A stretch of 64,000 bases of DNA from a virus: the IMG/VR virus record IMGVR_UViG_3300022074_000005. One strand, given 5' to 3'. Below, piece by piece: positions 6,622-60,535 of this stretch. The number at the start of each line of letters is the position of its first letter. Position 1 is the stretch's first letter. Below the pieces are notes generated by a model that was given only the letters and a program-made list of their open reading frames with translations, made no database searches and had not been told where the DNA came from. The position numbers and the translations under genes are program-made.

Positions 6622-6650
6622 ATTATATTCAATTAGGTAGTAATTGTCAA
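6622..6650 (-). promoter_or_regulatory. Sigma70-type early promoter TTGACA-N17-TATAAT
   Basis: Perfect consensus: + strand attata at 6622-6627 and tgtcaa at 6645-6650. Confidence 0.85.
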
Positions 6651-27320: not shown

Positions 27321-27576
27321 TTAATTCCACTAATATATCACCAATATAATTAAAAAATTCATCACCGAAAACATCTCTAGGTAAACCATTGTTTTCTAGA
27401 ATATCAAACTCAAACTGCATTGTTAGTTTGCCATCTTTTTCTATTGGTGTTACTTTTCCATATTTGTATATTACACCAGCATACTTACCTTCGTTTATTC
27501 CTATACAAGTTTGATTAGGATACTTTGCTGATTGTATATAACTATACCGCTTCTTTGGTTTCTTCTTGTCCGCCAT
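27256..27576 (-). CDS. gp40: Head vertex assembly chaperone-like (gp40 position)
   Basis: Syntenic between uvsX and gp41; Y.GV.Y.YG.V...F.....GDIL. Confidence 0.55.
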
Positions 27577-28588
27577 ATGAAAATTCCTTTTTAGCTGCTA
27601 TTTCTAATTTATCCAGCACTTCTTTAGTAAAGTAAGTCTCTGGGTTATCGTTAATAGATTTACCAAATACTTTTTTGCCATCTGGTAGTTCATATTTTGT
27701 AGATACCTTTTTAAAGATATCATACTTTTCAGCGAGTGGTAATAGACCATAATACTTGTCGAGTCCTTTTGAGTACATAAGTCTAACGTCCACTATTGAA
27801 TTTTCTTTTGTTAATCGTGATTTGTGATTTTTACAATGAATAATATTACCAACAACATCTGTACCTACTTTTTCTTTTCTTTTTGATAAGAATACAATAG
27901 AAGAAGCTGCATATTTTAGTCCACTTCCACCACCCATTTCTTTAGTAGGAAACATACTACCCATTGAGTCATATGTATGATTGGTTACAACCATTGGAAC
28001 TTTTGCTTTACCAAGTTTCAATGTTAATACTCTGAATGCAGCTTTTAAAACTTGAGCTCTTGTCATGTCTCTAGTTTCTTTACCTTCAGCTGTATCTTCT
28101 ACTTCTTTTGTAGTTGATAGCATTCCAAGTGAATCAAGACATATAAACATTGGTCTTTTTACAGTAACATCTTGTTGCATATATCTATCTAATATTTTAA
28201 GTGATTGTGTTCTAAATTCTTGTACAGTTGTCACAGGTACAACAACCATTCTTTCTGCATCGATACCTCTATCAACAATCATTTTTTTAGTTATTGCTGA
28301 TTCTGATTCAAAGTAAACAACACCACCATCTGGGTTTGCATCTAAGAAATGTTTAACAATTCCCATAAGGAAAAATGTTTTACCTGTAGCAGATTCACCT
28401 GCTAGTGCGGTAATTTTGTTTTGAGGAAGTCCACCATAAAGTGAACCTGAAAGAAGAGCATTAAAAATATATGAACCTGTATCAATAAAATCTGTTACAT
28501 CACCACTTTCAATACCAGCATCAGCTAGTGTTGCATATTCATTACCTGTTGTCTTAATTATCTCTTTTAAAAAATCACTACCTGACAT
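27542..28588 (-). CDS. uvsX: RecA-like recombinase UvsX
   Basis: [29 protein letters not shown]. Confidence 0.95.
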
Positions 28589-28589
28589 A

Positions 28590-28814
28590 TTAACTCCTTA
28601 TATATTTAGTACACATTTTATCTAGTGCGTAAAACCATACACCATTTATTGTTGGTTCTACTAATGCAACAACACCTGCCTCAAATAAACTGGCACCTGT
28701 TACAATACTTACTACTGACATTGCTATTATTACATGACCACAAGTATAAATCAATGCCCTACCCATACTTGTACTACCTATTGTTTTAAATATGCCTTGA
28801 GTAAATTCTGTCAT
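28590..28814 (-). CDS. DUF2061-like membrane protein
   Basis: [10 protein letters not shown]...TG...AG..ALVEP..N.VWFY..D. Confidence 0.65.
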
Positions 28815-29068
28815 TATATATCCGTCCTTACGATATGTTTTCTCAAAGCTCTTACCAACTCTTCTATTTTATCTATTACAGATATCATATCTTTATCTGT
28901 AATATACTTTTGTTTTTCTCTTAACTTATCATATTCTTTTAATGATATCTGCACCATAGGACTAGGTGCTGGCGCTTCGTTTTCCATACTGGCGTCAAGA
29001 GCTCTTTGTTTTTCTTCACTATCTGTCATTTTATTGCTATCGCTCCTATAAACATAAAGTTTCGCCAA
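28814..29068 (-). CDS. Hypothetical protein
   Basis: True start probably MTDSEE; coiled coil. Confidence 0.55.
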   Translation of the reverse strand: MAKLYVYRSDSNKMTDSEEKQRALDASMENEAPAPSPMVQISLKEYDKLREKQKYITDKDMISVIDKIEELVRALRKHIVRTDI

Positions 29069-29733
29069 AATACTTGTACATCTTTAAATCCAGCATTGAA
29101 CATAAATTGTTTTAGTTCATCCCAAGTATTAGGTTTCAACATATGTCTTAATGTTTTTTCTTTTGTCATTATATCATCGCAAGTAAAACTTTCTTTTTTA
29201 TGATCGTAATACATGAAAGTCATCATATCTTGTATTTGTGGATTATCACAATATACTTTTTCTGCAAACACAAATGCTCCACCTGGTTGTAGTTGATCGT
29301 ACACTTTTTTAATTACATCTTCTCTATCTCTCTTTGGCATAAACTGCAAAGTAAAAATAGATGTTGCGTATGATAATTTTTTTCTATAATCAAATTCATG
29401 ATATCTAATATCTGCATGTAAAAACTTAGCATCAATATCATGATTGTTTTTAATTGTTTTTGTTCTTTCTCTTAAATCTTTTTGAAATCCCTCTGCATAT
29501 TCAACACCAACATAATGAGCAGATGGTGCTATATCTTTATTTGCTTTTATTATTCTATCAGTAAGTTTACCTGTTGAACATCCTATATCTAAAACATAAG
29601 TGCCGTCTTCTACAAAGTATCTAGAAAAAGATACAACGTCTCTTAACATATCTTGATAACCACGAATAGACTTATCTATGTGAAGATCAAAACCTTCGTC
29701 TCTATGTGCAAATGTAAAATCATTATTCATCAT
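29026..29733 (-). CDS. cmoA: CmoA-like carboxy-S-adenosylmethionine synthase
   Basis: F..HI.KSIRGY, LDIGCSTG, DIR, FTLQF, L.PGGAFVFAEK, AGF...FWRNF.F, collinear with E. coli CmoA as recalled. Confidence 0.85.
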   Translation of the reverse strand: MMNNDFTFAHRDEGFDLHIDKSIRGYQDMLRDVVSFSRYFVEDGTYVLDIGCSTGKLTDRIIKANKDIAPSAHYVGVEYAEGFQKDLRERTKTIKNNHDIDAKFLHADIRYHEFDYRKKLSYATSIFTLQFMPKRDREDVIKKVYDQLQPGGAFVFAEKVYCDNPQIQDMMTFMYYDHKKESFTCDDIMTKEKTLRHMLKPNTWDELKQFMFNAGFKDVQVFWRNFMFIGAIAIK

Positions 29734-30866
29734 ATATTCCTTATTACTTTTTCATACATTGAAGTTGCTAGTGCCTTCATCATAATACTAGGTACCATTC
29801 TACCACAACGTTCAGATTTTTGAGCCCACTTGCCAGTAAGTTTAAAATCATCTGGCAACGAAGTAACTCTTTTTAATTCACCAAGTGTAAACTTTCTATC
29901 GTCATTCCAATGACACACACCAGCAGTTTTTTCTGTAGCACCCATCGCTGTAATAGTAGGACTAGGGTGAAACTCCGAAGCAATCTTTAAATTAAAGTGC
30001 CATCCTTTTGGATGATAATCAGTACCAGTGATAACTTTCTTTGGGTTTCTTGGCATCAAAACACATGTTTGTTTATAGTATGCTGTTTCTTTCCATTTTG
30101 TAGTTAACATATCAACTTCTTCTTTGTCATACTCTAAACCATCAAAGGCACCTTGTAAAGTAGTAATAGTATTGTTTGGCTCAGGAAATAAAGATGATAA
30201 TGTCATAAAGTTTAAACCAACCTTATCCATTATATCATCACGTACTGCCATAAAAAAAACTCTACGTCTTCTTTGTGGAACACCAAACTTAGAACAATCA
30301 TGTACTTTTGCAACTACTTGATATCCAATGTCTTCAAATGTATTTTGAATTTTATTAAAATATTGTTTTGCTTCTCCTACTGTTAGACCTTCAACATTTT
30401 CTGCAATGATAGTCTTTGGTCTAATAACTTCAGCAACTCGTAAAAACTCAAAAAATAAATCTTCAATATTAGTAACTATCTTTCCGTCTGAATAAGATTT
30501 AGTTTTACCAAAGCCATCACTATGTACAGTTCCCTCTCTTGCAAGAGTACCACACATACTAAATGCTGAACAAGGTGGACTACCATCTAGTAGTTCTAAT
30601 TCACCTTCTTTTAATTTTGTTAAATCTAAAAAGTCTTTACCTGTAAGTTCTTTTATGTCACCATCCATGATTGGTGTAGTTGGATAATTATCTCTATAAG
30701 TATTTCTTGCCTCTTCAACAAATTCATTGATTGCAAGTATCTTACCACCTGCAAGTCTATAACCTGTAGATGAACCACCACCACCAGCAAAAGTAGATAT
30801 AACTCTAAACTTGTTTAGTGCCTCTCCAGCGTGTACATCTTTCATTAAGTAAGGTTGATATTTCAT
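29730..30866 (-). CDS. DNA cytosine-C5 methyltransferase-fold enzyme, predicted carboxymethyltransferase
   Basis: Motif I FAGGGG, IV GSPPC, VI ENV, VIII QRRRR; motif X reads GRMVP instead of GN(A/S)VP. Confidence 0.9.
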   Translation of the reverse strand: MKYQPYLMKDVHAGEALNKFRVISTFAGGGGSSTGYRLAGGKILAINEFVEEARNTYRDNYPTTPIMDGDIKELTGKDFLDLTKLKEGELELLDGSPPCSAFSMCGTLAREGTVHSDGFGKTKSYSDGKIVTNIEDLFFEFLRVAEVIRPKTIIAENVEGLTVGEAKQYFNKIQNTFEDIGYQVVAKVHDCSKFGVPQRRRRVFFMAVRDDIMDKVGLNFMTLSSLFPEPNNTITTLQGAFDGLEYDKEEVDMLTTKWKETAYYKQTCVLMPRNPKKVITGTDYHPKGWHFNLKIASEFHPSPTITAMGATEKTAGVCHWNDDRKFTLGELKRVTSLPDDFKLTGKWAQKSERCGRMVPSIMMKALATSMYEKVIRNI

Positions 30867-31675
30867 AACATAAACTGATTTAGTGTTGCACCTGTTGGAT
30901 TAGACTTTGGCCAATCTCTAACTAAATCCATAACTCTAGTTCTACCTTTGTAATTAATTTCATTATTATTTAGCAGTCTTTCAAATAAAACATTTATTTT
31001 TGAATCTAATTGTAAGTTTAAATGTTTCTTAACGTCTTTGTCAAGATTAAAAGCAGTTCTTACGTGATGTTTTTGATAAGGTTGATTTAACTGATACCAA
31101 TCCATACTATAAAAATATTCTTTCACATTCATTCTTAGATATGGTGTAATAAACTTTTTATTAAACATATCTGAAACTTTTTTATGCATAATATATCCAG
31201 CTGTGTTTTCTGGTAAGAAATAGTTATCTCTAAACTCATCAAACTTTTCTTTTGTATGTTTATAATGGATATTTGCTTTTTTACTTACTCCATAATAACC
31301 ATCTGCAGCCCAACCAGAAATTACATAAGTTTGTGTAATTTTAGGATACACATATAGAAAAGGATAAACACATTCATAATGGGTTTTCTTTTTACATCCT
31401 AAATTTACAAGTTTGTAAAAGTCCTCTTCTAACTTGCTAGTATCTATTACAGTTCCTATAAAACTCCAATTGTGATTCTTTGCAATCTCTTGAGCTTTAT
31501 TATAATCATATGAGGGTTCATTGTCAAGACAAAAAGAGTATGCAGTTATCTTTTTTCCTAATCTTTCAGCTGCTAATGCAACTGATATACTATCTACCCC
31601 ACCAGATAATAGCACTGCTACATTGTCATCTGGTACAGTTTGTTTTATGTTTTCAACTAATAGTTTATCTATCAT
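30863..31675 (-). CDS. Asparagine-synthetase-like ATP pyrophosphatase (amide ligase), no glutaminase domain
   Basis: PP-loop LLSGGVDS, ISGWAADGYYG, TPYL. Confidence 0.8.
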   Translation of the reverse strand: MIDKLLVENIKQTVPDDNVAVLLSGGVDSISVALAAERLGKKITAYSFCLDNEPSYDYNKAQEIAKNHNWSFIGTVIDTSKLEEDFYKLVNLGCKKKTHYECVYPFLYVYPKITQTYVISGWAADGYYGVSKKANIHYKHTKEKFDEFRDNYFLPENTAGYIMHKKVSDMFNKKFITPYLRMNVKEYFYSMDWYQLNQPYQKHHVRTAFNLDKDVKKHLNLQLDSKINVLFERLLNNNEINYKGRTRVMDLVRDWPKSNPTGATLNQFML

Positions 31676-34152
31676 GCAAAAAAACTCTCTAACGTTCCTT
31701 GAGTTCCATAACTACGATCTACATTCCATTTGATTTTTTCTATGATATAGTTTAATGGTTCTACAAAAGACTTTTCAAATTGTAAATCATAATCTACTGC
31801 AAAACTAATTTCTTTTGGTAATTTTGTTATAAAAGAAATACTAGATGATTGATATATATTTGGAAGTTTCATATGTAAAAATTTAATCTTATCACCCTCT
31901 TGTATCAATGGATACTTGTAACCAAGTTTATTTTTTTTAATAAGATGATTATAAAGTATTGCACCTTTAACATGTATTGGTGCTCCTTTTTTAAATAGAT
32001 TGTGTGATTCAGTCCATTTACTTAAACCATTTACTCCTCTAGGATACGCCACATCTTCAGGCGCTAGTGTTAGAAATTTTTTTCTAAAATTTTGAATAAA
32101 AGTATTCAATTCTTTTTCATCACCATCCATAATAATACGTAATGCTTGTTTTATATTTTCTCTACATGGTGCAGGTGTTGAAGACTTAACTGCTTCTATT
32201 CCCATAATTTTTAATTTAGGTTCTTTGTAACGAACACCTTCAACATCATGAGCATTTAAAATATATCTTTTCTTTGCTGTCCATATACCTTTGTCTGCGA
32301 TTACTTCTCTTTTCATTTGCATTTTTTGTTCAAATGCTTTTGTATAATCAGCAAGTTCTTTATATACTTTATTAATAAATGGTTCTACTTTTTCTTTTGC
32401 AATAGTATCAAGAAAGTCAACTGGGTTCTTTGGTTTAAACTTTTCAACCAGTTCATCAAATCTAATATAAACTGAATCTGTATCAGACGCAATAACATAA
32501 TCAACATCTTTTGTTTTTAGTAATTCATTCATATACTCATTTAATTTTTCTTCTATCCAACGAATAGATAACTGACCAGAAGTGGTAATCGCTTCTGCAA
32601 TAGGAAGATTATAATATCTAAACCAATTATTACCAATCGCACCATAAGCTGAGTTAAGTGAAATCTTTCTTGCCATTTGAATATTATCAAATTTAGATAT
32701 CATTTTTAGTAGTTTTGGATTTTTAGTTTTTTCATATTCTTGTTTTGCATCTAACATAGCTCTTTTGTATTTTACTCTGTCCTCATACATTGTCTGCATC
32801 ATTTCAGGTAAGAAACCTTTTTTGTCAGTTCTAAACAAAGCACCATTTGGTGTCATAGTAGTATCTTTTAAAATAGACGTATCAACTTTTTTAGATAGCA
32901 ACTTATCTACGTTCATGTTAGGTACTGTTTTATCACTCTTTAATGTTTCTGGTGATATATTATATTGCATAATTAAATGTGGATATAATGAGTTTAAGTC
33001 AAACGATACAACCCATTTGTGTTCACCTACCTGTGGGTCTTTAACATATGCACCTTCATACTTGTCAGATTTTTCTTTATTTGTTTTTTGTGGTATAACA
33101 ATTTTTTTATCCATTAAGTAATTGTGAATAAGAACATCCCAATAACGAACACTACCAAGAACATCTACATAATTAACTTTCGCTTCATATGCCATAGTTA
33201 AACATAGTTCAATTAGTTTCATCTTATCTTCTAGTTGGTCAACTATCTCAACATCTTTAATATTATAATCAATAAAAGATTGAAAGTCATTTGTGTACCA
33301 ATCTCTAAATGTATCATGTGGATTTTCATTTTTTTTAATTCCAAGTTCTACATTAGCAATATGATCTAGTTTGTAACTCTCTTGATTAGTATATGTAAAT
33401 TTTCTATACAAATCATAATAGTCAAGAGCAGCCACACCTTGAATATCATAAACTTGATATTGTCTACCCATTTGATAAATTGTTTTAGATAATACTGAAC
33501 GCCAAGGTGATAAATCTTTTAAAGTGTCCTCGTTCATTATTTTTTTAATACGATTACACAAATAAGGAATATCAAAAAATTCTGTATTCCAACCTGTAAT
33601 TACATCTGGTTGATTTAATTTCCAAAACTTTATAAACTCTGTAAGTAATTCGTATTCATTATCACACTCAATATAAACAACGTCTTTTCTTTCTGTTTTA
33701 AATTTACCTACACCCCATACAAATATCTGTTTGTTTTGTTGATTTTTAATTGTAATAGATAATAATTCTTCAGAAGCTTCTTGAGGATTTGGGAAACCAT
33801 TTTCACAAGCAACTTCTATATCAATTGTAATAATTAATACTTCATCCATATTCCATTCAAGATTAGGATATTGTTCATACAAATAACTAAATTGAAAGTT
33901 GGTATTACCATATACTAGATGAGGTTGATCTTCGTATTGTTGTACCCAGTTCTTTGCTTCTTTGATTGTTTCATGTTTAATAGGCATAACATATTTGCCT
34001 TGTAAAGTTTTATATTTTGTTTCTCTCATAACAGGACAAAACATAGTTGGCGAATATTTAACCCTACGATTAATACGTTCACCATTTACAATCTCTCTCA
34101 ATAAAAGATTGTTACCCCATTGTATAATATTTGTATAAAATCTACTCATCAA
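31672..34152 (-). CDS. gp43: DNA polymerase family B (T4 gp43)
   Basis: DIEV, GWN..FFD, YNIKD, SFDLNSLYP, KISLNSAYG, SDTDS, KKRY. Confidence 0.98.
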   Translation of the reverse strand: MMSRFYTNIIQWGNNLLLREIVNGERINRRVKYSPTMFCPVMRETKYKTLQGKYVMPIKHETIKEAKNWVQQYEDQPHLVYGNTNFQFSYLYEQYPNLEWNMDEVLIITIDIEVACENGFPNPQEASEELLSITIKNQQNKQIFVWGVGKFKTERKDVVYIECDNEYELLTEFIKFWKLNQPDVITGWNTEFFDIPYLCNRIKKIMNEDTLKDLSPWRSVLSKTIYQMGRQYQVYDIQGVAALDYYDLYRKFTYTNQESYKLDHIANVELGIKKNENPHDTFRDWYTNDFQSFIDYNIKDVEIVDQLEDKMKLIELCLTMAYEAKVNYVDVLGSVRYWDVLIHNYLMDKKIVIPQKTNKEKSDKYEGAYVKDPQVGEHKWVVSFDLNSLYPHLIMQYNISPETLKSDKTVPNMNVDKLLSKKVDTSILKDTTMTPNGALFRTDKKGFLPEMMQTMYEDRVKYKRAMLDAKQEYEKTKNPKLLKMISKFDNIQMARKISLNSAYGAIGNNWFRYYNLPIAEAITTSGQLSIRWIEEKLNEYMNELLKTKDVDYVIASDTDSVYIRFDELVEKFKPKNPVDFLDTIAKEKVEPFINKVYKELADYTKAFEQKMQMKREVIADKGIWTAKKRYILNAHDVEGVRYKEPKLKIMGIEAVKSSTPAPCRENIKQALRIIMDGDEKELNTFIQNFRKKFLTLAPEDVAYPRGVNGLSKWTESHNLFKKGAPIHVKGAILYNHLIKKNKLGYKYPLIQEGDKIKFLHMKLPNIYQSSSISFITKLPKEISFAVDYDLQFEKSFVEPLNYIIEKIKWNVDRSYGTQGTLESFFA

Positions 34153-34523: not shown

Positions 34524-35708
34524 TTATTCAAAATAATTTTCTAGTTTACCTGTTCTACTTAAATCTACTGAACAACAATGAGCACCACCAGACCATAAAA
34601 AGTTCCAACGATTAACCCAAGGTATCATTTCAATGTTATATTTTTTTAATTTATCAGCTAAGTTCTTATCATAACCAGAAGTGATAATAGTATTCTCATC
34701 TAAAGATAATACGTTACAATCAAATCTTGTCTCTTGAGCTATACCTAATAACTCTGGCATAGGATAGTTTTTTACACCTCTCTCTTCGCACAATGCTTTT
34801 ATAGTTTTACCATCATATTCTGCTGATGGGTCCATTATAATGATTTCCCAATTATTGTCAACCATTATTTTTGGTACGTATTCTTTTTTCCATGTTAATA
34901 CTAACCCTGGTCTTAATATTGCTATCTTACCATCTACATGTCCGTAAGCTTGCATCTGAACAAATTTGTGTTTAGGAAACTCCCTTTTGTACCATTCTAA
35001 CCCATTGTTAGTAATACATATTTGTGAATGTTCTTTTATACCTAATCTATCTTGAGGGTTTGCAAAAGTATGAAATATATGTTTTCCACATTTATAGAAA
35101 GCAGCTGTATCACCTATGATATTATTTTGATTATCATATGATTCTATCTGTTCATTGCAATATCTGTTTACTTCATCTATATCTGTTGTGACTTGTTGTG
35201 GTTTACTTTCATACATCATTGGTGGCATTGCAATGTATCTAGCACCATTCTTAAATTCATCTAACATTACTTTTTGATGATTTAAGTTTTCTAAACCTCT
35301 TTCTTTTTTAGCTGTGTAAACTTCGAATATGGTATTACCAATCTTTCCTATTGTATCTCTACATTGCATCGGGTGACTTAAACCATCTTCAATGTTAGGA
35401 ATAACATCTGGTCTTACAACTTCAGCACCATACTGTTGACACAACTTGGCAAGTAAATTTAAATCTTCATTTGTTTCATCATGTATTTTTTTTAAAGTAT
35501 CTTTGTATAATGGTAATTGTTCTTTGATATCTCTTTTATGATTAGTGTAATCTAGAGTATCATCAGCATATTCCACGCTTCTATTTCGTACTGTATTGTC
35601 GTACTCCATGAGAATCTTATTCTCAAATTCATCTTCTACTTTACTGACATCATAGGTTTTACCTATTAGGACTTTTTTAAGAGGTGTCCACTCATCATAA
35701 ACTGTCAT
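34524..35708 (-). CDS. Amidinotransferase (glycine/inosamine-phosphate amidinotransferase family)
   Basis: YDEWTPLKKV.IG, V.RP, CRD, HVDG, CNVLSLDE, GGAHC. Confidence 0.85.
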   Translation of the reverse strand: MTVYDEWTPLKKVLIGKTYDVSKVEDEFENKILMEYDNTVRNRSVEYADDTLDYTNHKRDIKEQLPLYKDTLKKIHDETNEDLNLLAKLCQQYGAEVVRPDVIPNIEDGLSHPMQCRDTIGKIGNTIFEVYTAKKERGLENLNHQKVMLDEFKNGARYIAMPPMMYESKPQQVTTDIDEVNRYCNEQIESYDNQNNIIGDTAAFYKCGKHIFHTFANPQDRLGIKEHSQICITNNGLEWYKREFPKHKFVQMQAYGHVDGKIAILRPGLVLTWKKEYVPKIMVDNNWEIIIMDPSAEYDGKTIKALCEERGVKNYPMPELLGIAQETRFDCNVLSLDENTIITSGYDKNLADKLKKYNIEMIPWVNRWNFLWSGGAHCCSVDLSRTGKLENYFE

Positions 35709-37243: not shown

Positions 37244-38341
37244 TTAGTTATATACTATCTTACTATTGATAATATTTTTTATATATTCGCCACCATCTAA
37301 ATTAATATCTGGTATGTCTTGTTCTTTTATTTTATTTGTTTGTCTGATACCTTCAACAAGCATGTCGGCATCTAAATCATTATTTGTTAACCAATGGCAA
37401 CCACCAGCTTTAGAATATGCATCTGCTCTAAAAGGTTCCTCAGTTGCAATGATATTATTATTAACATCATACATTTCAGACGAAGTAGCTTCATTTGGTG
37501 TAACTAATGCTGGTGTTTTAGTTATATTTAAATCTGTAAAAGTCATATATCCTAACATTGTAAAAGCCATTTTATGTATTGATAGATAATCTCTAAATTC
37601 ATTTACACTAGGTCTTTCAATTAAATGTATGCCTCTATTCTCTGCCATAATTCTAATATCTTTTGGTGTCTTTGGTCCAACTATAAATGACATCTTTTGC
37701 CACATCATCTTTTCTTTAACTTGTAAAAACAATCTTTGATAATGATGAGTTAGTTCATACCAATCACCACCTGATACTAATATGCCATCTCTTTTATCTA
37801 TACTAGGTTTTTTATATGGAAGTGTAACATAACCTGTATTATGTATTTCACAATCTATCATTGGTGTTTCATGTAATTGTAAAGTTGCATCTATAAAATT
37901 ATCGTCACCTGCAAAAAATATGCCATCGTAAAATTCATTAAGTCTTTCAGTATAGAAATACATATCCTCTGGTTTAATCCAAGGTATGTCTCTATCTAAA
38001 GAATATATTCTTTTACCTGCTTCTTTTGCATGTTCTAATATATCAAGTATACCGCCATGTTCCCATAGTTCACCTCTTTGCTCTGTCCAAAAGGGGTCCC
38101 AACCATATCGACCAAAAGGATAACCCTCTGTAATAACTACATCTGGGTCATACTCTCTATAGTCTTGATATAGATCGTTATACTCTTTATCTTTACCAAA
38201 GAAGTCTATTGATTTTGATTTACCTGTAAAAGGTCGAGTTATGATAACTCTATCATTTAAATATTCGCCTAATGCGTTTGCTCTACTGATATGTCCATGA
38301 CCAGTATTACTTTGTACTAATATCAAACTCTTCATAACCAA
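37244..38341 (-). CDS. Glycosyltransferase (GT-B, GT28 C-terminal-like)
   Basis: GHGHISRA, EGYPFGR, ILVSGG, LGYMT, E..RA, LDGG. Confidence 0.75.
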   Translation of the reverse strand: MVMKSLILVQSNTGHGHISRANALGEYLNDRVIITRPFTGKSKSIDFFGKDKEYNDLYQDYREYDPDVVITEGYPFGRYGWDPFWTEQRGELWEHGGILDILEHAKEAGKRIYSLDRDIPWIKPEDMYFYTERLNEFYDGIFFAGDDNFIDATLQLHETPMIDCEIHNTGYVTLPYKKPSIDKRDGILVSGGDWYELTHHYQRLFLQVKEKMMWQKMSFIVGPKTPKDIRIMAENRGIHLIERPSVNEFRDYLSIHKMAFTMLGYMTFTDLNITKTPALVTPNEATSSEMYDVNNNIIATEEPFRADAYSKAGGCHWLTNNDLDADMLVEGIRQTNKIKEQDIPDINLDGGEYIKNIINSKIVYN

Positions 38342-38963
38342 ACTTTTTATAGACAGGCAACTTATGAATATCTGGGTAGTAATCCCAATCTTTTTTCATA
38401 GGTTTTACGTCTTTCACTTTCTCAAAATTTTTTAATCCTATTTTTGCTTTGTGTGGTGTCATATAATAATGATAACCAAACACATCTATATGTTGTTCAT
38501 TCCATGGCACACTTGATCTTGTTCTACCATCGTAACACATTAACCTTAATAAATCAGCATCTTCTTTATTATCTAAAAGTATCATGCCACCTCTGTCTGT
38601 ACTTAAATGTTTTCTATAAAAAAAACTTAAACACATTCTGGTGCCAGGTTCGTAACCATTCTTTTTCCAATACACAGCTGCATCAATAGTTTCTTTTGTT
38701 AGATAATAATACTCATGCCAATGCACATCACCCCATTGAAACTTCCAACCATTTTTAATTAGCATGTTTGGAACTGAAACGTATGTGTGAAATGGAACTT
38801 TGATAGCACGAACTTCTTTACCTTGCTTTTGTTTTTCTAATCTTAAGCAAAGCTCTAAAGCATTTGTGCAACAATCTGTGGCAACCGCATATGGAGCACC
38901 AAAGAATTCTGCGACTTTGTTTTCAAACTCTGTGACGACATGCCACTCGTTTTTTTGCATCAT
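38307..38963 (-). CDS. DegT/DnrJ/EryC1/StrS-family PLP aminotransferase (short form)
   Basis: FE..VA.FFG..YAVAT..CTNAL, TYVSV, IDAA, SFFYRKHL..DRGGM. Confidence 0.85.
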   Translation of the reverse strand: MMQKNEWHVVTEFENKVAEFFGAPYAVATDCCTNALELCLRLEKQKQGKEVRAIKVPFHTYVSVPNMLIKNGWKFQWGDVHWHEYYYLTKETIDAAVYWKKNGYEPGTRMCLSFFYRKHLSTDRGGMILLDNKEDADLLRLMCYDGRTRSSVPWNEQHIDVFGYHYYMTPHKAKIGLKNFEKVKDVKPMKKDWDYYPDIHKLPVYKKFGYEEFDISTK

Positions 38964-47747: not shown

Positions 47748-48576
47748 AAAGTTCTTTTGCTATCAACCTGTGTGCTTTTTCGTTAGGGTGTGTATCTTTG
47801 AATGATACTTTATAACCTGTTTCACCCATTGCTCTTTTTAAGAAACTTAAAACATTAAATCCACCAATCTCTGGTACTATCGGCCATCCCCAAAAATTAT
47901 TCTCTTTAATTAAATCACTGGTCTTATGTTCTATTAATTTTATTGCGATTGCATTATCTCTTTTATGATTGTCATTTGTAAAATGAAATGCTGGTATTGG
48001 TTTGATTGCTTGTGCAAACGTATATGGTATGTTTAGATTTTCACATATGGATTGCATTGAATATATGTAATTTAAATTAGTATCTATAAGATTATCTAAG
48101 TTTGGGTATGCATGTTTAATAGTGCCAGAAAAATTAAAAGACTTTCTATACCACAATTGTGTTTTATCATATTCATCATTCTCAGCTCTAGGTATCATAG
48201 TGTCAAATCTTTTTGTTATCTTTGTTCTACTACCATCTGCTTGAGTTATGTGATATGAATAATCATTAAGTAAAAAATCTTGTCTTGCCCATTCTGACCA
48301 CATTACATATACATGTTTTATATTATCTTTATTTTTTATTATTGCATCTAAAGTTTCATGATAGATTGCCATATTACCAAATCCACATCTAGCAGTATTA
48401 ATAACTTCACAATCATATAGTTCACCTATAACTTCTGGCCACATTTTAAAATGTAAAGGTTTTGGTTTTGCTCTACTAGGATAGTTCTTATCTGTAAAAC
48501 TACAACCACCAACTATTATTTTATCGGAATACTTTGACATTATATTTCTTTTCAAAACTTTCTGCATGAGTAACAT
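47725..48576 (-). CDS. SGNH-like hydrolase/acyltransferase
   Basis: GGCSFTD, GFGN, MWSEWARQD, DTHPNEKAH; paralog of 45946..46656. Confidence 0.7.
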   Translation of the reverse strand: MLLMQKVLKRNIMSKYSDKIIVGGCSFTDKNYPSRAKPKPLHFKMWPEVIGELYDCEVINTARCGFGNMAIYHETLDAIIKNKDNIKHVYVMWSEWARQDFLLNDYSYHITQADGSRTKITKRFDTMIPRAENDEYDKTQLWYRKSFNFSGTIKHAYPNLDNLIDTNLNYIYSMQSICENLNIPYTFAQAIKPIPAFHFTNDNHKRDNAIAIKLIEHKTSDLIKENNFWGWPIVPEIGGFNVLSFLKRAMGETGYKVSFKDTHPNEKAHRLIAKELYDYSIQK

Positions 48577-49852
48577 TATTAACTATAGGTTTACCTCTTA
48601 TGTTTAAGGATGTATTTAATAACATAGGACAACCTGTTTGACTATACCACTCTTCTAGTATAGGTCTTAATATACTTATATTATCTTTCTCAACACATTG
48701 AACTCTAGCGGTACCGTCAACGTGTGTGACTGATTTATAATCGTGTCTTGCTTTAGATACAAACTGCATATACCTATTCTTTCTACCAACAAAGTAATCA
48801 TCAAAGTATTCTTCCAATATTGCTGGTGCGAAAGGTCTAAACTTTTGTCTTTGTTTAACTTCATTTACTGTATCTTTAATATCTAGTCTAGGGTCTGCTA
48901 ATAAACTTCTATTACCTAATGCTCTTGGTCCAAACTCTGCTCTTCCGTTTGCAACTCCACAAAGTTTATGTTCTAGTAAATGTTTTACGATTTCTTTAGG
49001 GTTTAATTCTTTTATTATATTGTGACCTAAGTATGGGTGTCGCCATCTTATTTTTTTCTTTTCTATCAAAGCAGCTGCACCTAGACTTGAACCTGCATCA
49101 CCAGGTGATGGCATAATCCAAACATTAAAACGATCTGGTATCTTACTATTTGCAACACAATTTAAAGCACAACCACCCATGATTACTATGTTATTATAGT
49201 CACAATATTTTAATAGTTCTAAAAACTTTGTTTCATATAAATTTTGTACACTAGCTGCTAAATCATTAGGGTGTGCTCGTGGAAATATTTTACCAACACC
49301 TCTATGATTATTTTTATGTAATAGATATTCTAAATCATACTTTGGTTCTCCAAATGCAGCCATACCCATTGTGATATATTCATCTTCATTTGGTTTTAAT
49401 CCTATTCTTCTTGTAATCGCTGAATACAATAATCCTAGTGAATATGGATAGTTCCATGTTTTTAATTTTGTTAACTTATCATCTTTACCTTCCCATATTG
49501 ATATTGTATTCCATTCACCTATTGCGTCTATGACCAAAACATTACATTCGTTAAATGGTGAAGTATAATAACCTGCAGCTGCATGGGTTTCATGATGACC
49601 AAAGTAATAGTCATATTTTCTATCAGGCCATTTCATTCTTTGACCTGCAAACAATCTTCTTGTATTTTTTAAAAATGGTTTTTCATAAAACGCAGTATTA
49701 TCATAATGTAAAGGTAAAAGGTTAGGATTAAAGTTAGGGTCTCCTTTTATCTTTGAGTATCTTTCACAATGATTAGCATAAATTATTTCTCTTCCATTAA
49801 TTACTGTAATAGCTGCATCATGAAATCCTGCTGATATTCCTACATTAATCAT
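48521..49852 (-). CDS. O-carbamoyltransferase (NodU/CmcH/TobZ family)
   Basis: HDAA, HHETHAA, DAIGE, GGCALNC, GDAG, EFGPRALGNRS, FRPFAP, HVDGTAR, LNTSLN. Confidence 0.93.
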   Translation of the reverse strand: MINVGISAGFHDAAITVINGREIIYANHCERYSKIKGDPNFNPNLLPLHYDNTAFYEKPFLKNTRRLFAGQRMKWPDRKYDYYFGHHETHAAAGYYTSPFNECNVLVIDAIGEWNTISIWEGKDDKLTKLKTWNYPYSLGLLYSAITRRIGLKPNEDEYITMGMAAFGEPKYDLEYLLHKNNHRGVGKIFPRAHPNDLAASVQNLYETKFLELLKYCDYNNIVIMGGCALNCVANSKIPDRFNVWIMPSPGDAGSSLGAAALIEKKKIRWRHPYLGHNIIKELNPKEIVKHLLEHKLCGVANGRAEFGPRALGNRSLLADPRLDIKDTVNEVKQRQKFRPFAPAILEEYFDDYFVGRKNRYMQFVSKARHDYKSVTHVDGTARVQCVEKDNISILRPILEEWYSQTGCPMLLNTSLNIRGKPIVNNVTHAESFEKKYNVKVFR

Positions 49853-50127
49853 TTGTTTACCTTACAATTAAACTGACATATATCTATTGGGTCTTCAAAA
49901 CTTTTTGGTAAATCTTTTTGAAACCAATCTTTGTGTGTAATATTTTTTATACTATCATTTTCTAAATTATATCTATCTTTGTTATCATGATACTTTGTCA
50001 ATAGTTGATGTTTTGCTTTATTTGGTTTACCATATTGATCACTAGCAAGATAACAACAAGGCCAAACTTGACCATCTGGGTTTATCATAGTTTTAGTTGT
50101 GCCTTCCAAAAATTTACACTTTATCAT
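49849..50127 (-). CDS. Stand-alone SPASM/Twitch Fe-S domain
   Basis: C...INPDGQVWPCC...C..NC. Confidence 0.75.
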   Translation of the reverse strand: MIKCKFLEGTTKTMINPDGQVWPCCYLASDQYGKPNKAKHQLLTKYHDNKDRYNLENDSIKNITHKDWFQKDLPKSFEDPIDICQFNCKVNK

Positions 50128-50860
50128 CTGCAGCCTCTAGATATTCCTCTTCACCCTTTTCATTAATAAAATAAAATCTATTAGATTTATTATGATTAAA
50201 TATATGAGTAGGATTTGAATTAGGGATAGAATTTTCAAATCTATCACTAGGATAAAACTCATGATTTGCTGAACCATATTTTTTTACTAAATCTAATATA
50301 TCTTTTTTATATTCTTGATTGTGTTTAAATAATATTGTTTGAGATAATGCTTTTCCTTGAGTTTGTGAAAACATATACATATGATCTAAAGATTTTTTTA
50401 ATGATGTGCCTCTTCTATACTTTTGATGCATTTCCTCTGTGGTGCCATCTATATCAAATATAATAGTAAGTCTCTCCCCACAATAAACACCTAAGTTCCA
50501 ATAAAACTCTTCATTACGTAAACTACCATTTGTTGTTATTAGTACATTTGCTTTTGAATTATCAATAATATAGTGACATATTTTTTCTATGTCTTTTGCC
50601 ATCATTGAGTCTCCCCAAGTGCTAGTAAACCCATACTCTTCTATATCATCTAAAGTTTCTTTTGGAAAATATTTTATAAATTTTTCTACTGGCCAAGATA
50701 TAATTGGTAACCAATCAACAGCACCTAAACCATTTGGATTAGTTCTATCACATTGAGGACACCTAGCATTACAACGATTAGTTATCGCAATGTCAATTCT
50801 TTTTGATAAACTTTGACCTAAGTCTATCATCTCTTGAGGATGTTGTAAAAAGTTTGGCAT
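50114..50860 (-). CDS. Radical SAM protein
   Basis: CNARCPQC, TTNGS, DIDG...YRRG. Confidence 0.85.
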   Translation of the reverse strand: MPNFLQHPQEMIDLGQSLSKRIDIAITNRCNARCPQCDRTNPNGLGAVDWLPIISWPVEKFIKYFPKETLDDIEEYGFTSTWGDSMMAKDIEKICHYIIDNSKANVLITTNGSLRNEEFYWNLGVYCGERLTIIFDIDGTTEEMHQKYRRGTSLKKSLDHMYMFSQTQGKALSQTILFKHNQEYKKDILDLVKKYGSANHEFYPSDRFENSIPNSNPTHIFNHNKSNRFYFINEKGEEEYLEAADDKV

Positions 50861-58430: not shown

Positions 58431-58818
58431 TTTTTATATCCCACCCTCTAGATTGAATTGACCTTTGGACACCTTCTAAAAATTTAACAGTTGTTTCTAG
58501 ATACACTATTTTATTTTTTGCGTCAATAACTTCTTGGTCAGATTCAATATAAATGTTTAAATCTGTTTTTAAAACTTTTAAGTCAAATGGTTTTGATGCA
58601 TAAACTTTAGCATCTGATTTACCACCATAATATTCCCATTTGTCTCGGTACATTTTCGTATATTCACCTTTTGCTTTCGCAAGTAAGAATTCAAAGTTAG
58701 TTTTGTAATCAAGATACTTTGCATACAGGTCTTGATTACGTAAACTTTCTGTATCTAAATGTTCTTTATCTACAGGTAAGTCTTTATATGTTTGTTTTTT
58801 TAAATCATCTAACGTCAT
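58390..58818 (-). CDS. uvsY: Recombination mediator UvsY
   Basis: LDTESL, WEYY.GK, PFDLKV, RGWDIKNAIEW.KF.AG. Confidence 0.93.
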   Translation of the reverse strand: MTLDDLKKQTYKDLPVDKEHLDTESLRNQDLYAKYLDYKTNFEFLLAKAKGEYTKMYRDKWEYYGGKSDAKVYASKPFDLKVLKTDLNIYIESDQEVIDAKNKIVYLETTVKFLEGVQRSIQSRGWDIKNAIEWRKFEAGMV

Positions 58819-59887
58819 TTGTTTGTTCCCATTTGTATGCTTCTATTACGTGATTTAAAGCATCTAAAAAATGTTCATCACCTGGTTTTGGTTCTATTTC
58901 TTTTTGTTTTCTTAACTCTTGTTCTACTGAACTACCTATTACATTTCCTAAGATATGTCTATCTGAATGTGGTCTATCAATAAAAGCAGCTTCAAAGTAT
59001 GAATAGATATCTCCTCTAGGGTCAATTGCTATTTTTACTTGTGGTGATTGTTTTCTTGTTAATTGTTTGTAATTAACAGATAATAATTTATTCATTCTAC
59101 CTTCAAGTAATGCTACTAAAGCATAACCATAATCAATATTTAATAATCTTTTTTTTGCTTCCTCATCAAACTCTAAAAGTTTTTCTCTTAATTTATTTCT
59201 GTCGTCAATAGGATATTGAAAAGAAAAATCCTCTCGTAATGATAAAGTGTGAACGCCACCAATATCATCTATGTAATTAAATATCTTATGCAAGTTTTCA
59301 AACTCTGTAGGTAATAAAACATGATTAATATGTAATGGTGGTTTAGTTACATTTAATTTATTATAATCTTTAAGATTTTTTTTAACAACACGAAACGCTT
59401 TATTGTTTTTAGTTGTTGACGTAGTTTGATTTTCATCATAACCATATAATGATATACGAAAATGATCTACTGTTAATAGATTAGGATTTTTTTCTATAAA
59501 TCTTGGTGTTAACATAAAACCATTTGTAATAAATCTAACTTTATAACCTCTAACATGTAAGTCTTTACAAAGTCTGTCTATTTCATTATACGTAAGTGGT
59601 TCTAGTCCACCACCTATATTATATCTGTATGGATTATCACCTGGGTCTTGATCTAAAAGTGTATCGTAAAAATAATTGTAGTTTGGTTCTCTGGCGTCAT
59701 AGTTTCGCCCACAAAACGTACATTCGAACATGCAGCTAGTGCCAGGGAAAAGATTAATATTTTTAGGAAATTTGTAAACACCATCTATTGCAGCTTGTAT
59801 ATGCCCCGTATCTATTAAGGGTTGGATTGTTCTATAATATGATTTATCCATTGGAATCACTTGATATTTTTTGTATAACAGGTACAA
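58805..59887 (-). CDS. DesII-like radical SAM enzyme (NDP-4-amino-4,6-dideoxyhexose ammonia-lyase family)
   Basis: FPGTSCMFECTFCGR, GGLEPLT, RISLYG, REDFS, IDYGYAL, PQV...D..GD.Y.Y.EA.F, GDEHFLDA, all collinear with DesII as recalled. Confidence 0.85.
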   Translation of the reverse strand: MYLLYKKYQVIPMDKSYYRTIQPLIDTGHIQAAIDGVYKFPKNINLFPGTSCMFECTFCGRNYDAREPNYNYFYDTLLDQDPGDNPYRYNIGGGLEPLTYNEIDRLCKDLHVRGYKVRFITNGFMLTPRFIEKNPNLLTVDHFRISLYGYDENQTTSTTKNNKAFRVVKKNLKDYNKLNVTKPPLHINHVLLPTEFENLHKIFNYIDDIGGVHTLSLREDFSFQYPIDDRNKLREKLLEFDEEAKKRLLNIDYGYALVALLEGRMNKLLSVNYKQLTRKQSPQVKIAIDPRGDIYSYFEAAFIDRPHSDRHILGNVIGSSVEQELRKQKEIEPKPGDEHFLDALNHVIEAYKWEQTNDVR

Positions 59888-60479
59888 CTCTATTATTCAC
59901 TTTCATTGTTTTTCTATTAATAGGAAAAACTTCATTTATGGGTTCTACAAAATCAAAACTGTAAATACAACTATGTCTAGTTGCAAATTGCATTGGCATA
60001 ACTTTATCAAATTCCATACACCAATTCCAAAGTTCGATATGTCTATAATGATTGATTATATAGATTTTTGGTGGATTTGTCAAGGAATAATCTAGGTTAT
60101 ACTCTGGCCCAACGTTGTCCATAATAATATCGTAAGGTTTATCAAATACAGGTGTCTCTATAGCATCTTGTAATTTAAATTCATACTTACCATCGTAAGA
60201 AAATAAATCTTTATACTTGTCTTGTAATGCTATTGAATTATGATGTCTATAATAAAAACTTTTGTCTATGTTTAAACACTCTTTAACGTTGTTACCGTAT
60301 TGTGCTATAAAAAAATCTAAATTAGGACCACCACCGATACACTTAACAGTTTCTACATTTTTAAATAGATTGTTAAGTATTTCGTATTGTTCTAATTCAA
60401 AATCCCAAAAGTTATTTTTATTGTCTTTGTATAGATTATATATTTCTGTCCACTTGACATTCACAATTGTTACACTCAC
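59844..60479 (-). CDS. Hypothetical protein (possible methyltransferase fold)
   Basis: IGGGPNLD...NID...YDIIMD. Confidence 0.5.
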   Translation of the reverse strand: MSVTIVNVKWTEIYNLYKDNKNNFWDFELEQYEILNNLFKNVETVKCIGGGPNLDFFIAQYGNNVKECLNIDKSFYYRHHNSIALQDKYKDLFSYDGKYEFKLQDAIETPVFDKPYDIIMDNVGPEYNLDYSLTNPPKIYIINHYRHIELWNWCMEFDKVMPMQFATRHSCIYSFDFVEPINEVFPINRKTMKVNNRVVPVIQKISSDSNG

Positions 60480-60505: not shown

Positions 60506-60535
60506 ATTATACTCTTTAACCAGTTCATTTGTCAA
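60506..60535 (-). promoter_or_regulatory. Sigma70-type early promoter TTGACA-N18-TATAAT
   Basis: Intergenic; heads the uvsY/uvsW unit. Confidence 0.75.

Follow-up and report, generated by a model that had tools for sequence, protein, structure and literature searches.

What do the three genes that directly follow the DNA polymerase gene of an uncultured marine phage do, and on which nucleic acid do they act? The locus lies in IMG/VR record IMGVR_UViG_3300022074_000005, and the whole 64,000-nucleotide (64-kb) stretch that we analyzed is referred to here as the window. On its minus strand, gp43 is followed by genes for an asparagine-synthetase-like PP-loop enzyme, a cytosine C5-methyltransferase (C5-MTase) homologue, and a CmoA homologue, which we call cmoY, cmoX, and cmoA. 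A sequence-only reading had proposed that this cassette makes carboxy-S-adenosylmethionine (carboxy-SAM, Cx-SAM), writes 5-carboxymethylcytosine (5cxmC) with it into phage DNA, and then converts the new carboxyl to an amide; it also pointed to a comparable pathway reported from a Synechococcus phage. That precedent is real: the pathway is the same as that of phage S-B43 (Yang et al., Nat Commun 2025, PMC12783734), whose three proteins are homologous to those of the window at 56% (CmoA), 59% (CmoX), and 48% (CmoY) identity. We conclude that the cassette is very probably a CmoY-CmoX-CmoA DNA hypermodification system of the S-B43 kind. The present analysis shows what the genes are, their family markers and fold, and their synteny and conservation across related loci; the chemistry is proven for the S-B43 homologues.

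The S-B43 proteins were characterized in December 2025. CmoA makes Cx-SAM; CmoX, a C5-MTase homologue, writes 5cxmC at GC motifs; and CmoY, an asparagine-synthetase homologue, ligates glycine to 5cxmC with ATP, the glycine amide (5-glycylcarboxymethylcytosine) being present in S-B43 virion DNA (PMC12783734). Modification of duplex DNA by the S-B43 transferase (SpCmoX) has been shown with the purified system in vitro as well as in E. coli cells and virions, and its crystal structure with Cx-SAM is PDB 8YF3 (PMC12783734). The CmoX family is defined by an SPPC motif together with an arginine, Arg350 in SpCmoX, that replaces Asn304 of HhaI; the wild-type enzyme accepts Cx-SAM only, and the R350N mutant is dead (PMC12783734). 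The phage sequence sets of that study count 5,615 CmoX, 4,257 CmoA, and 2,251 ligases (PMC12783734). Since this type of system has already been described, along with how widely it occurs in phages and the fact that its three genes occur together (PMC12783734), the novelty that the sequence-only reading implied for the type does not hold; a literature search found, besides Yang et al., no further paper on the natural system. The cassette is a new copy of the published system in a different phage lineage, not the discovery of a system type. What is new here is the Y-X-A gene order in the slot between gp43 and uvsX of Melnitz/pelagimyophage-like marine phages, together with three modest points: a swappable cmoY module, a sigma-70 promoter inside cmoY, and a slot in common with the MTase-plus-TET cassette of phage Melnitz.

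The four minus-strand frames that had been described agree with the list of open reading frames (ORFs; Table 1), the gp43 frame as listed having a TTG start codon. They are chained as claimed: the minus-strand sequence ATGA occurs at 3/3 junctions (31672-31675, 30863-30866, and 29730-29733), each stop overlapping the next start, the first of them joining the gp43 stop to the cmoY start. Pfam, PHROG, NCBIfam, and PDB matches bear out the gene identities. A scan of viral contigs with CmoX found 78 loci, all uncultured, and with the window proteins mapped onto them, the order gp43-cmoY-cmoX-cmoA-uvsX is seen in most, and it is repeated in dozens of marine viral contigs; the three genes are co-inherited in ~50 contigs. 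The same cassette is also found at 99%-100% identity in the nearest record, G001, a 22-kb IMG/VR fragment.

CmoX aligns with SpCmoX over its full length (59% identity, E = 2e-163), and a PDB search with CmoX returns 8YF3 as the best match by far (E = 8.6e-142, vs. ~1e-15 for ordinary C5-MTases). The catalytic SPPC lies at S96-C99 (GSPPC, 95-99) and aligns with S95-C98 of SpCmoX. The motif-X arginine, R356 in ERCGRMVP, aligns with SpCmoX R350 (HhaI N304), the residue that binds the Cx-SAM carboxylate, and the cofactor contacts F26, E48, F49, and D70 align with SpCmoX F25, E47, F48, and D69. These markers are kept among related loci: G-R-M-V-P, with the motif-X arginine, is present in 73/73 CmoX sequences, and SPPC in 72/73, the lone exception being a truncated fragment. 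Compared with SpCmoX, the window protein carries a 6-residue insertion at about residues 310-315.

All the canonical C5-MTase motifs are present in CmoX as well (PF00145, 1e-49), as they would be in an ordinary methyltransferase making 5-methylcytosine (5mC); CmoA would then serve the tRNA modification 5-carboxymethoxyuridine (cmo5U) with a host CmoB, or deplete SAM against host defences. The score of CmoA below the NCBIfam equivalog cut-off would fit this explanation, and SAM depletion was posed as an open side question by Yang et al. (PMC12783734). We nevertheless consider it very unlikely: in place of the motif-X Asn there is Arg356, as in SpCmoX, an enzyme unable to use SAM; the genes of the trio are coupled in translation and inherited together; no cmoB is found in the window; and 5mC offers an amide ligase no substrate.

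The absence of a visible cmoB, already remarked on in the sequence-only reading, holds up: tblastn with E. coli CmoB found nothing within the window (best E = 0.62, inside cmoA itself), and none of the CmoB-sized ORFs in the window matches a CmoB family. CmoA aligns with the biochemically proven SpCmoA at 56% identity over 235 aa (E = 7e-92), and with the PDB entries 1IM8, 4IWN, and 4GEK at E ~1e-19 (1e-18 to 1e-20 for 1IM8 and 4GEK). Its SAM-binding residues Y26, D49, G51, S53, D108, and F131 match Y39, D62, G64, S66, D117, and F137 of E. coli CmoA (EcCmoA). The ancestral role of CmoA in tRNA modification, and the PHROGs label "tRNA methyltransferase," might suggest that the cassette acts on RNA (phage or host tRNA or rRNA) instead of DNA. 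With CmoX 59% identical to a proven duplex-DNA modifier, and with the cassette lying within the replication module between gp43 and uvsX, an RNA target seems extremely improbable.

Many Erwinia, Dickeya, and PaBG-like jumbo phages also encode homologues of CmoA (31%) and CmoY (36%), at a distance of ~3 kb from each other (for example, Erwinia jumbo phage MZ443772.1, 12318-13019 and 16273-17115). These jumbo phages have no CmoX match at E<1e-40.

The third protein was described in the sequence-only reading as a ligase lacking a glutaminase domain, and this is what we find: PF00733 covers only residues 2-154 of CmoY, the synthetase half, with no N-terminal nucleophile (Ntn) glutaminase domain. 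A PP-loop of the SGGxDS form is present (S24-G25-G26-V27-D28-S29). CmoY is 48% identical to the S-B43 ligase (SpCmoY) over 265 aa (E = 4e-91, pairwise BLASTP), which is inside the 1e-56 threshold of the SpCmoY similarity-network cluster. An AlphaFold2 (AF2) model of CmoY (pLDDT 85, pTM 0.82) has as its best Foldseek matches synthetase domains from beta-lactam and carbapenam synthetases and from the asparagine synthetases of human and E. coli (TMq 0.64-0.74); the matches to 1MC1, 1CT9, and 6GQ3 have E ~1e-08 and align to the C-terminal halves of these ~500-aa enzymes.

Some observations count against the assignment to the S-B43 kind, or against carrying over its details. CmoA falls below the NCBIfam equivalog cut-offs (107.1 vs. 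193.3 bits for TIGR00740, and 70.6 bits vs. a cut-off of 285 for NF011995), although no other family comes near CmoA in score for this 235-aa protein. In E. coli CmoA, Arg199 forms a salt bridge with the carboxymethyl carboxylate of Cx-SAM (PMC3663124); by HMMER and MAFFT, that column holds an invariant glutamate, Glu192. An invariant Arg196 stands four residues on, one helical turn away, in 42/42 phage sequences, and active SpCmoA has the same KEKxLR arrangement; with Glu in the column itself, we count the Arg199 feature as neither kept nor lost and record the shifted Arg196 instead. In CmoX, the variable region, the expected target reader, is only 45% identical to that of SpCmoX, which bears on the GpC target. 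In CmoY, the residue after an SG motif is Trp123, where SpCmoY has Ile and other alleles V, L, or I, which bears on glycine as the amine.

By analogy with S-B43, we infer the same activities for this phage, and likewise its amine (an amino acid, with glycine as the default) and its motif. CmoA would convert SAM and host prephenate to Cx-SAM. CmoX would flip out cytosines in duplex phage DNA, with Cys99 attacking C6, and would move the carboxymethyl group from Cx-SAM to C5 while Arg356 holds the cofactor carboxylate, giving 5cxmC. CmoY would then adenylate the 5cxmC carboxylate with ATP through its PP-loop and couple an amine to it, giving an amide. The cassette would be expressed both by read-through with gp43 and from a strong sigma-70 promoter within the cmoY gene.

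The target of CmoX is probably GpC, as for SpCmoX, on the strength of homology; given the divergence of the variable region, it can be put forward as a proposal only. In the window, GpC occurs at 1,627 sites, or once every 39 bp, and these sites account for 16% of all cytosines. GpC frequency is at expectation (rho = 1.03), and CpG is strongly depleted (odds ratio 0.51). With GpC not depleted, we dropped its frequency as a clue to the target.

Judging by the ligase sequence, glycine or some other amino acid is the probable amine, because CmoY would fall in the SpCmoY cluster (E = 4e-91 vs. 1e-56), and the members of that cluster retain the residues that bind the glycine carboxylate (PMC12783734). 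Glycine in particular is a guess because of the Trp123/Ile difference. In an alignment of 14 ligases, in which seven of the twelve allele clusters are represented, the PP-loop, an SG-x-(A/G)AD-G motif, and many basic positions vary hardly or not at all, and the residue after SG does vary. A profile search aligns the SG-x-(A/G)AD motif with TGYGAD of beta-lactam synthetase, so that the residue after SG corresponds to Tyr348. This Tyr348, like its counterpart Glu348 in E. coli AsnB, is a catalytic-site residue. The Trp123/Ile difference is a lead, not proof, that ligase pockets differ.

The ligase alleles themselves are very diverse. Ligases from 53 loci fall into 12 clusters at 75% identity and are mostly 40%-55% identical to one another and to SpCmoY; the set also includes a 474-aa form starting MCG and a distant 262-aa form. 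The most direct evidence of exchange comes from locus L010. In a 150-nt sliding comparison with the window, DNA identity is ~81%-97% (mostly 89%-96%) through gp43, cmoX, cmoA, and uvsX, and falls to ~55% exactly across 31668-30931, that is, cmoY (45% amino acid identity). Gene by gene, L010 and the window share ~89%-93% of their DNA sequence in gp43 and ~91%-97% in cmoX, cmoA, and uvsX. Only cmoY has been replaced, as a block (L010:1644-2462, vs. window 30863-31675). Since the third codon positions of both cmoY and cmoA alleles are saturated, these are old alleles that have been exchanged.

The transferase behaves very differently. In ~40 loci CmoX is 89%-96% identical in amino acid sequence to that of the window, whereas in the same loci gp43 is 76%-81%, CmoA 55%-64%, and CmoY 41%-47% identical. 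Third-position identity is 65%-74% for cmoX vs. 57%-62% for gp43, and synonymous divergence is only slightly lower in cmoX. Because third-position identity in cmoX is only modestly above that of gp43, most of the constancy of CmoX is explained by strong purifying selection; recent horizontal spread as the main cause was rejected on the same ground. The cmoY gene is a swappable module, exchanged as a block while the transferase is strongly conserved.

This diversity raises the alternative that the pathway is the same, and that the CmoY of the window uses, in place of glycine, a different amino acid, ammonia, or a polyamine to give an undescribed 5cxmC amide, the ligase slot varying the decoration between otherwise similar phages. 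The block replacement in L010, the 12 clusters with the additional 474-aa and 262-aa forms, and the Trp at the position matching beta-lactam synthetase Tyr348 all point in this direction, and other amines are expected in other ligase clusters (PMC12783734). Set against them, the window ligase lies within the SpCmoY cluster, whose members keep the glycine-carboxylate residues (PMC12783734), and allele divergence could equally reflect drift or escape from an anti-ligase factor. We therefore regard a non-glycine amine as possible and rather doubtful. The broader suggestion that the ligase position is a hot-swap locus, at which different alleles attach different amines and the window allele makes a not-yet-described cytosine amide, is likewise offered tentatively. 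If it were true, nature would have assembled at this locus a library of ligases that decorate DNA, with an arms race against modification-dependent nucleases of the host as the driving force. The ligase alleles form a compact natural panel for asking which amines can go on DNA.

The 474-aa ligase is found upstream of cmoX in two loci (L075:1324-2748, and L076), and its MCG start is as in glutamine-hydrolysing asparagine synthetases. It is probably the ammonia-using form that Yang et al. (PMC12783734) could not purify, and it would give a primary amide. Nine marine contigs have no ligase at all, cmoX directly abutting gp43 (L052-L054, L071-L074, L078, and L080); their DNA presumably carries bare 5cxmC.

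The cassette had been called polymerase-coupled. This is true for translation. It does not account for all of the expression, since cmoY also contains a perfect sigma-70 promoter, TTGACA-17-TATAAT, formed by codons L50-D51-N52 and Y58-N59. Perfect TTGACA-N16-18-TATAAT sites number only five in the 64-kb window, vs. 0.19 expected in shuffles, and each of them is on the coding strand. The promoter is kept in 10/10 loci with this cmoY allele family. Alleles of the L010, L011, and L012 type have a perfect promoter at +715 instead, ~100 nt before cmoX, and the L060 allele and the 474-aa ligase form have one near their 3′ ends. On this pattern, the promoter inside cmoY probably drives an extra transcript covering cmoX and cmoA; because perfect promoters are placed independently in diverged alleles, these two genes appear to have an early promoter of their own, besides gp43 read-through. 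One weak terminator-like hairpin was seen inside cmoX; such hairpins being fewer than expected by chance, it was disregarded.

The source of the window is an uncultured T4-like, Melnitz/pelagimyophage-like marine phage, with a GC content of ~30%. The nearest cultured match of gp43 is the Methylophilales (OM43) phage Melnitz (62% amino acid identity), cyanophages being at ~54%, and megablast against cultured phages gave no more than 1 kb of the polymerase gene, in Prochlorococcus phage P-TIM68, so that relatives had to be sought at the protein level. In Melnitz (L082, 4010-6194), the gene directly after gp43 encodes a C5-MTase that is 39% identical to the window CmoX (E = 9e-76). Its motif X reads IGLMVAP, with no Arg, and it is followed by a TET/JBP dioxygenase (PF12851, 3.6e-11) and by further genes before recA. 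Among CmoA homologues, the search returned no Melnitz match. The Melnitz slot thus implies, from its gene content, a route to hypermodification from 5mC to 5-hydroxymethylcytosine (5hmC) and not a carboxymethyl route. As judged from these sequences, the slot after the polymerase in this lineage takes up alternative cytosine-hypermodification cassettes built around related transferases.

The surrounding T4-like replication module comprises gp45, gp44, gp62, regA, inserted genes, gp43, the cassette, uvsX, and a DnaB-like helicase (for the features at and near the cassette, see Table 1). A fourth ATGA, at 29026-29029, joins a 71-aa ORF to cmoA. This ORF has no Pfam or PHROG match and, among related loci, is found only in the closest relatives (L003-L010, 61%-100% identity); the 74-aa DUF2061 ORF next to it is found only in L003-L005 and L069. 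Both were rejected as system components, being missing from most related loci. The slot between gp43 and uvsX also gathers variable small genes, and the 74-aa ORF is such a variable filler. Between the replication genes there are, further, a DegT-type aminotransferase piece (between gp44 and gp62), a carbamoyltransferase, and two radical SAM proteins (38307-38963, 48521-49852, 50114-50860, and 58805-59887, all on the minus strand). These are kinds of genes often involved in sugar or small-molecule tailoring and are unrelated to the Cmo cassette.

Table 1. Coordinates of the cassette, its promoter, and neighbouring features in the window
Feature	Coordinates	Strand	Matches or basis
gp43, family-B DNA polymerase	31672..34152	-	826 aa; PF00136 8e-31, PF03104 8e-28, phrog_262 1079 bits
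cmoY, ATP-dependent amide ligase (predicted; Asn-synthetase C-terminal PP-loop domain alone)	30863..31675	-	270 aa; PF00733 2.1e-12
cmoX, DNA cytosine C5-carboxymethyltransferase (predicted)	29730..30866	-	378 aa; PF00145 1e-49
cmoA, carboxy-SAM synthase (predicted)	29026..29733	-	235 aa; TIGR00740 1.1e-30, phrog_4752 1e-60, PDB 1IM8/4GEK
Perfect sigma-70 promoter inside cmoY, TTGACA-17-TATAAT	31499..31527	-	148 nt after cmoY ATG
71-aa ORF, ATGA-coupled to cmoA	28814..29029	-	sequence only
74-aa ORF, DUF2061 small membrane protein	28590..28814	-	PF09834 4e-05
uvsX recombinase, downstream border of insertion slot	27542..28588	-	phrog_97 5e-92, PF00154
Other four perfect sigma-70 sites	34834-34861, 60055-60083, 60507-60535, 6622-6650	-	TTGACA-N16-18-TATAAT scan

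With the chemistry published, the cassette is of interest chiefly for annotation. The prediction is that amide-decorated carboxymethylcytosine is present in the DNA of a widespread group of uncultured T4-like marine phages that have the OM43 phage Melnitz and the SAR11 myophages as relatives. DNA of this kind would have consequences for restriction digests, for nanopore base-calling, and for the preparation of marine virome libraries. The value added here lies in a modular ligase set against a conserved transferase, in an apparent early promoter within the ligase gene, and in a slot after gp43 that holds either a Cmo or an MTase-plus-TET cassette.

Compared with S-B43, the window has the same three families at similar lengths (235, 378, and 270 aa for CmoA, CmoX, and CmoY, vs. 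231, 372, and 271 aa). SPPC, the Cx-SAM arginine, and the adenine and ribose contacts are kept, the ligase has no glutaminase domain, no cmoB accompanies the trio, and in each phage 4-nt overlaps link the genes. The two differ in gene order (Y-X-A in the window, A-Y-X in S-B43), in place (between gp43 and uvsX, vs. downstream of a primase-helicase gene), and in lineage (a 30% GC Melnitz/pelagimyophage-like marine phage vs. a Synechococcus phage), as well as in the 6-residue insertion and 45% identical variable region of CmoX, the Trp for Ile in CmoY, and the sigma-70 promoter inside cmoY.

Other systems can also be set beside the window. Synechococcus phage S-CRM01 has a cmoA-cmoX pair (CmoX 58% and CmoA 54% identical to those of the window), also within the T4-like replication module; like the marine gp43-cmoX-cmoA contigs, it has no ligase, and its DNA presumably carries bare 5cxmC. 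Melnitz, the nearest cultured relative by its polymerase, has a C5 transferase in the same slot (between gp43 and recA), directly after gp43, but that enzyme is an MTase with no motif-X Arg, and its partner is a TET/JBP dioxygenase. The E. coli CmoA/CmoB pathway to cmo5U in tRNA likewise starts with Cx-SAM made from SAM and prephenate, and the SAM-binding residues are conserved, whereas the window CmoA is only ~26% identical to EcCmoA, no CmoB is found in the window, and the substrate would be DNA. Finally, the engineered carboxymethyltransferase M.MpeI N374K gained the use of Cx-SAM through a basic residue at the same motif-X Asn (PMC12783734), the position at which the window CmoX has R356.

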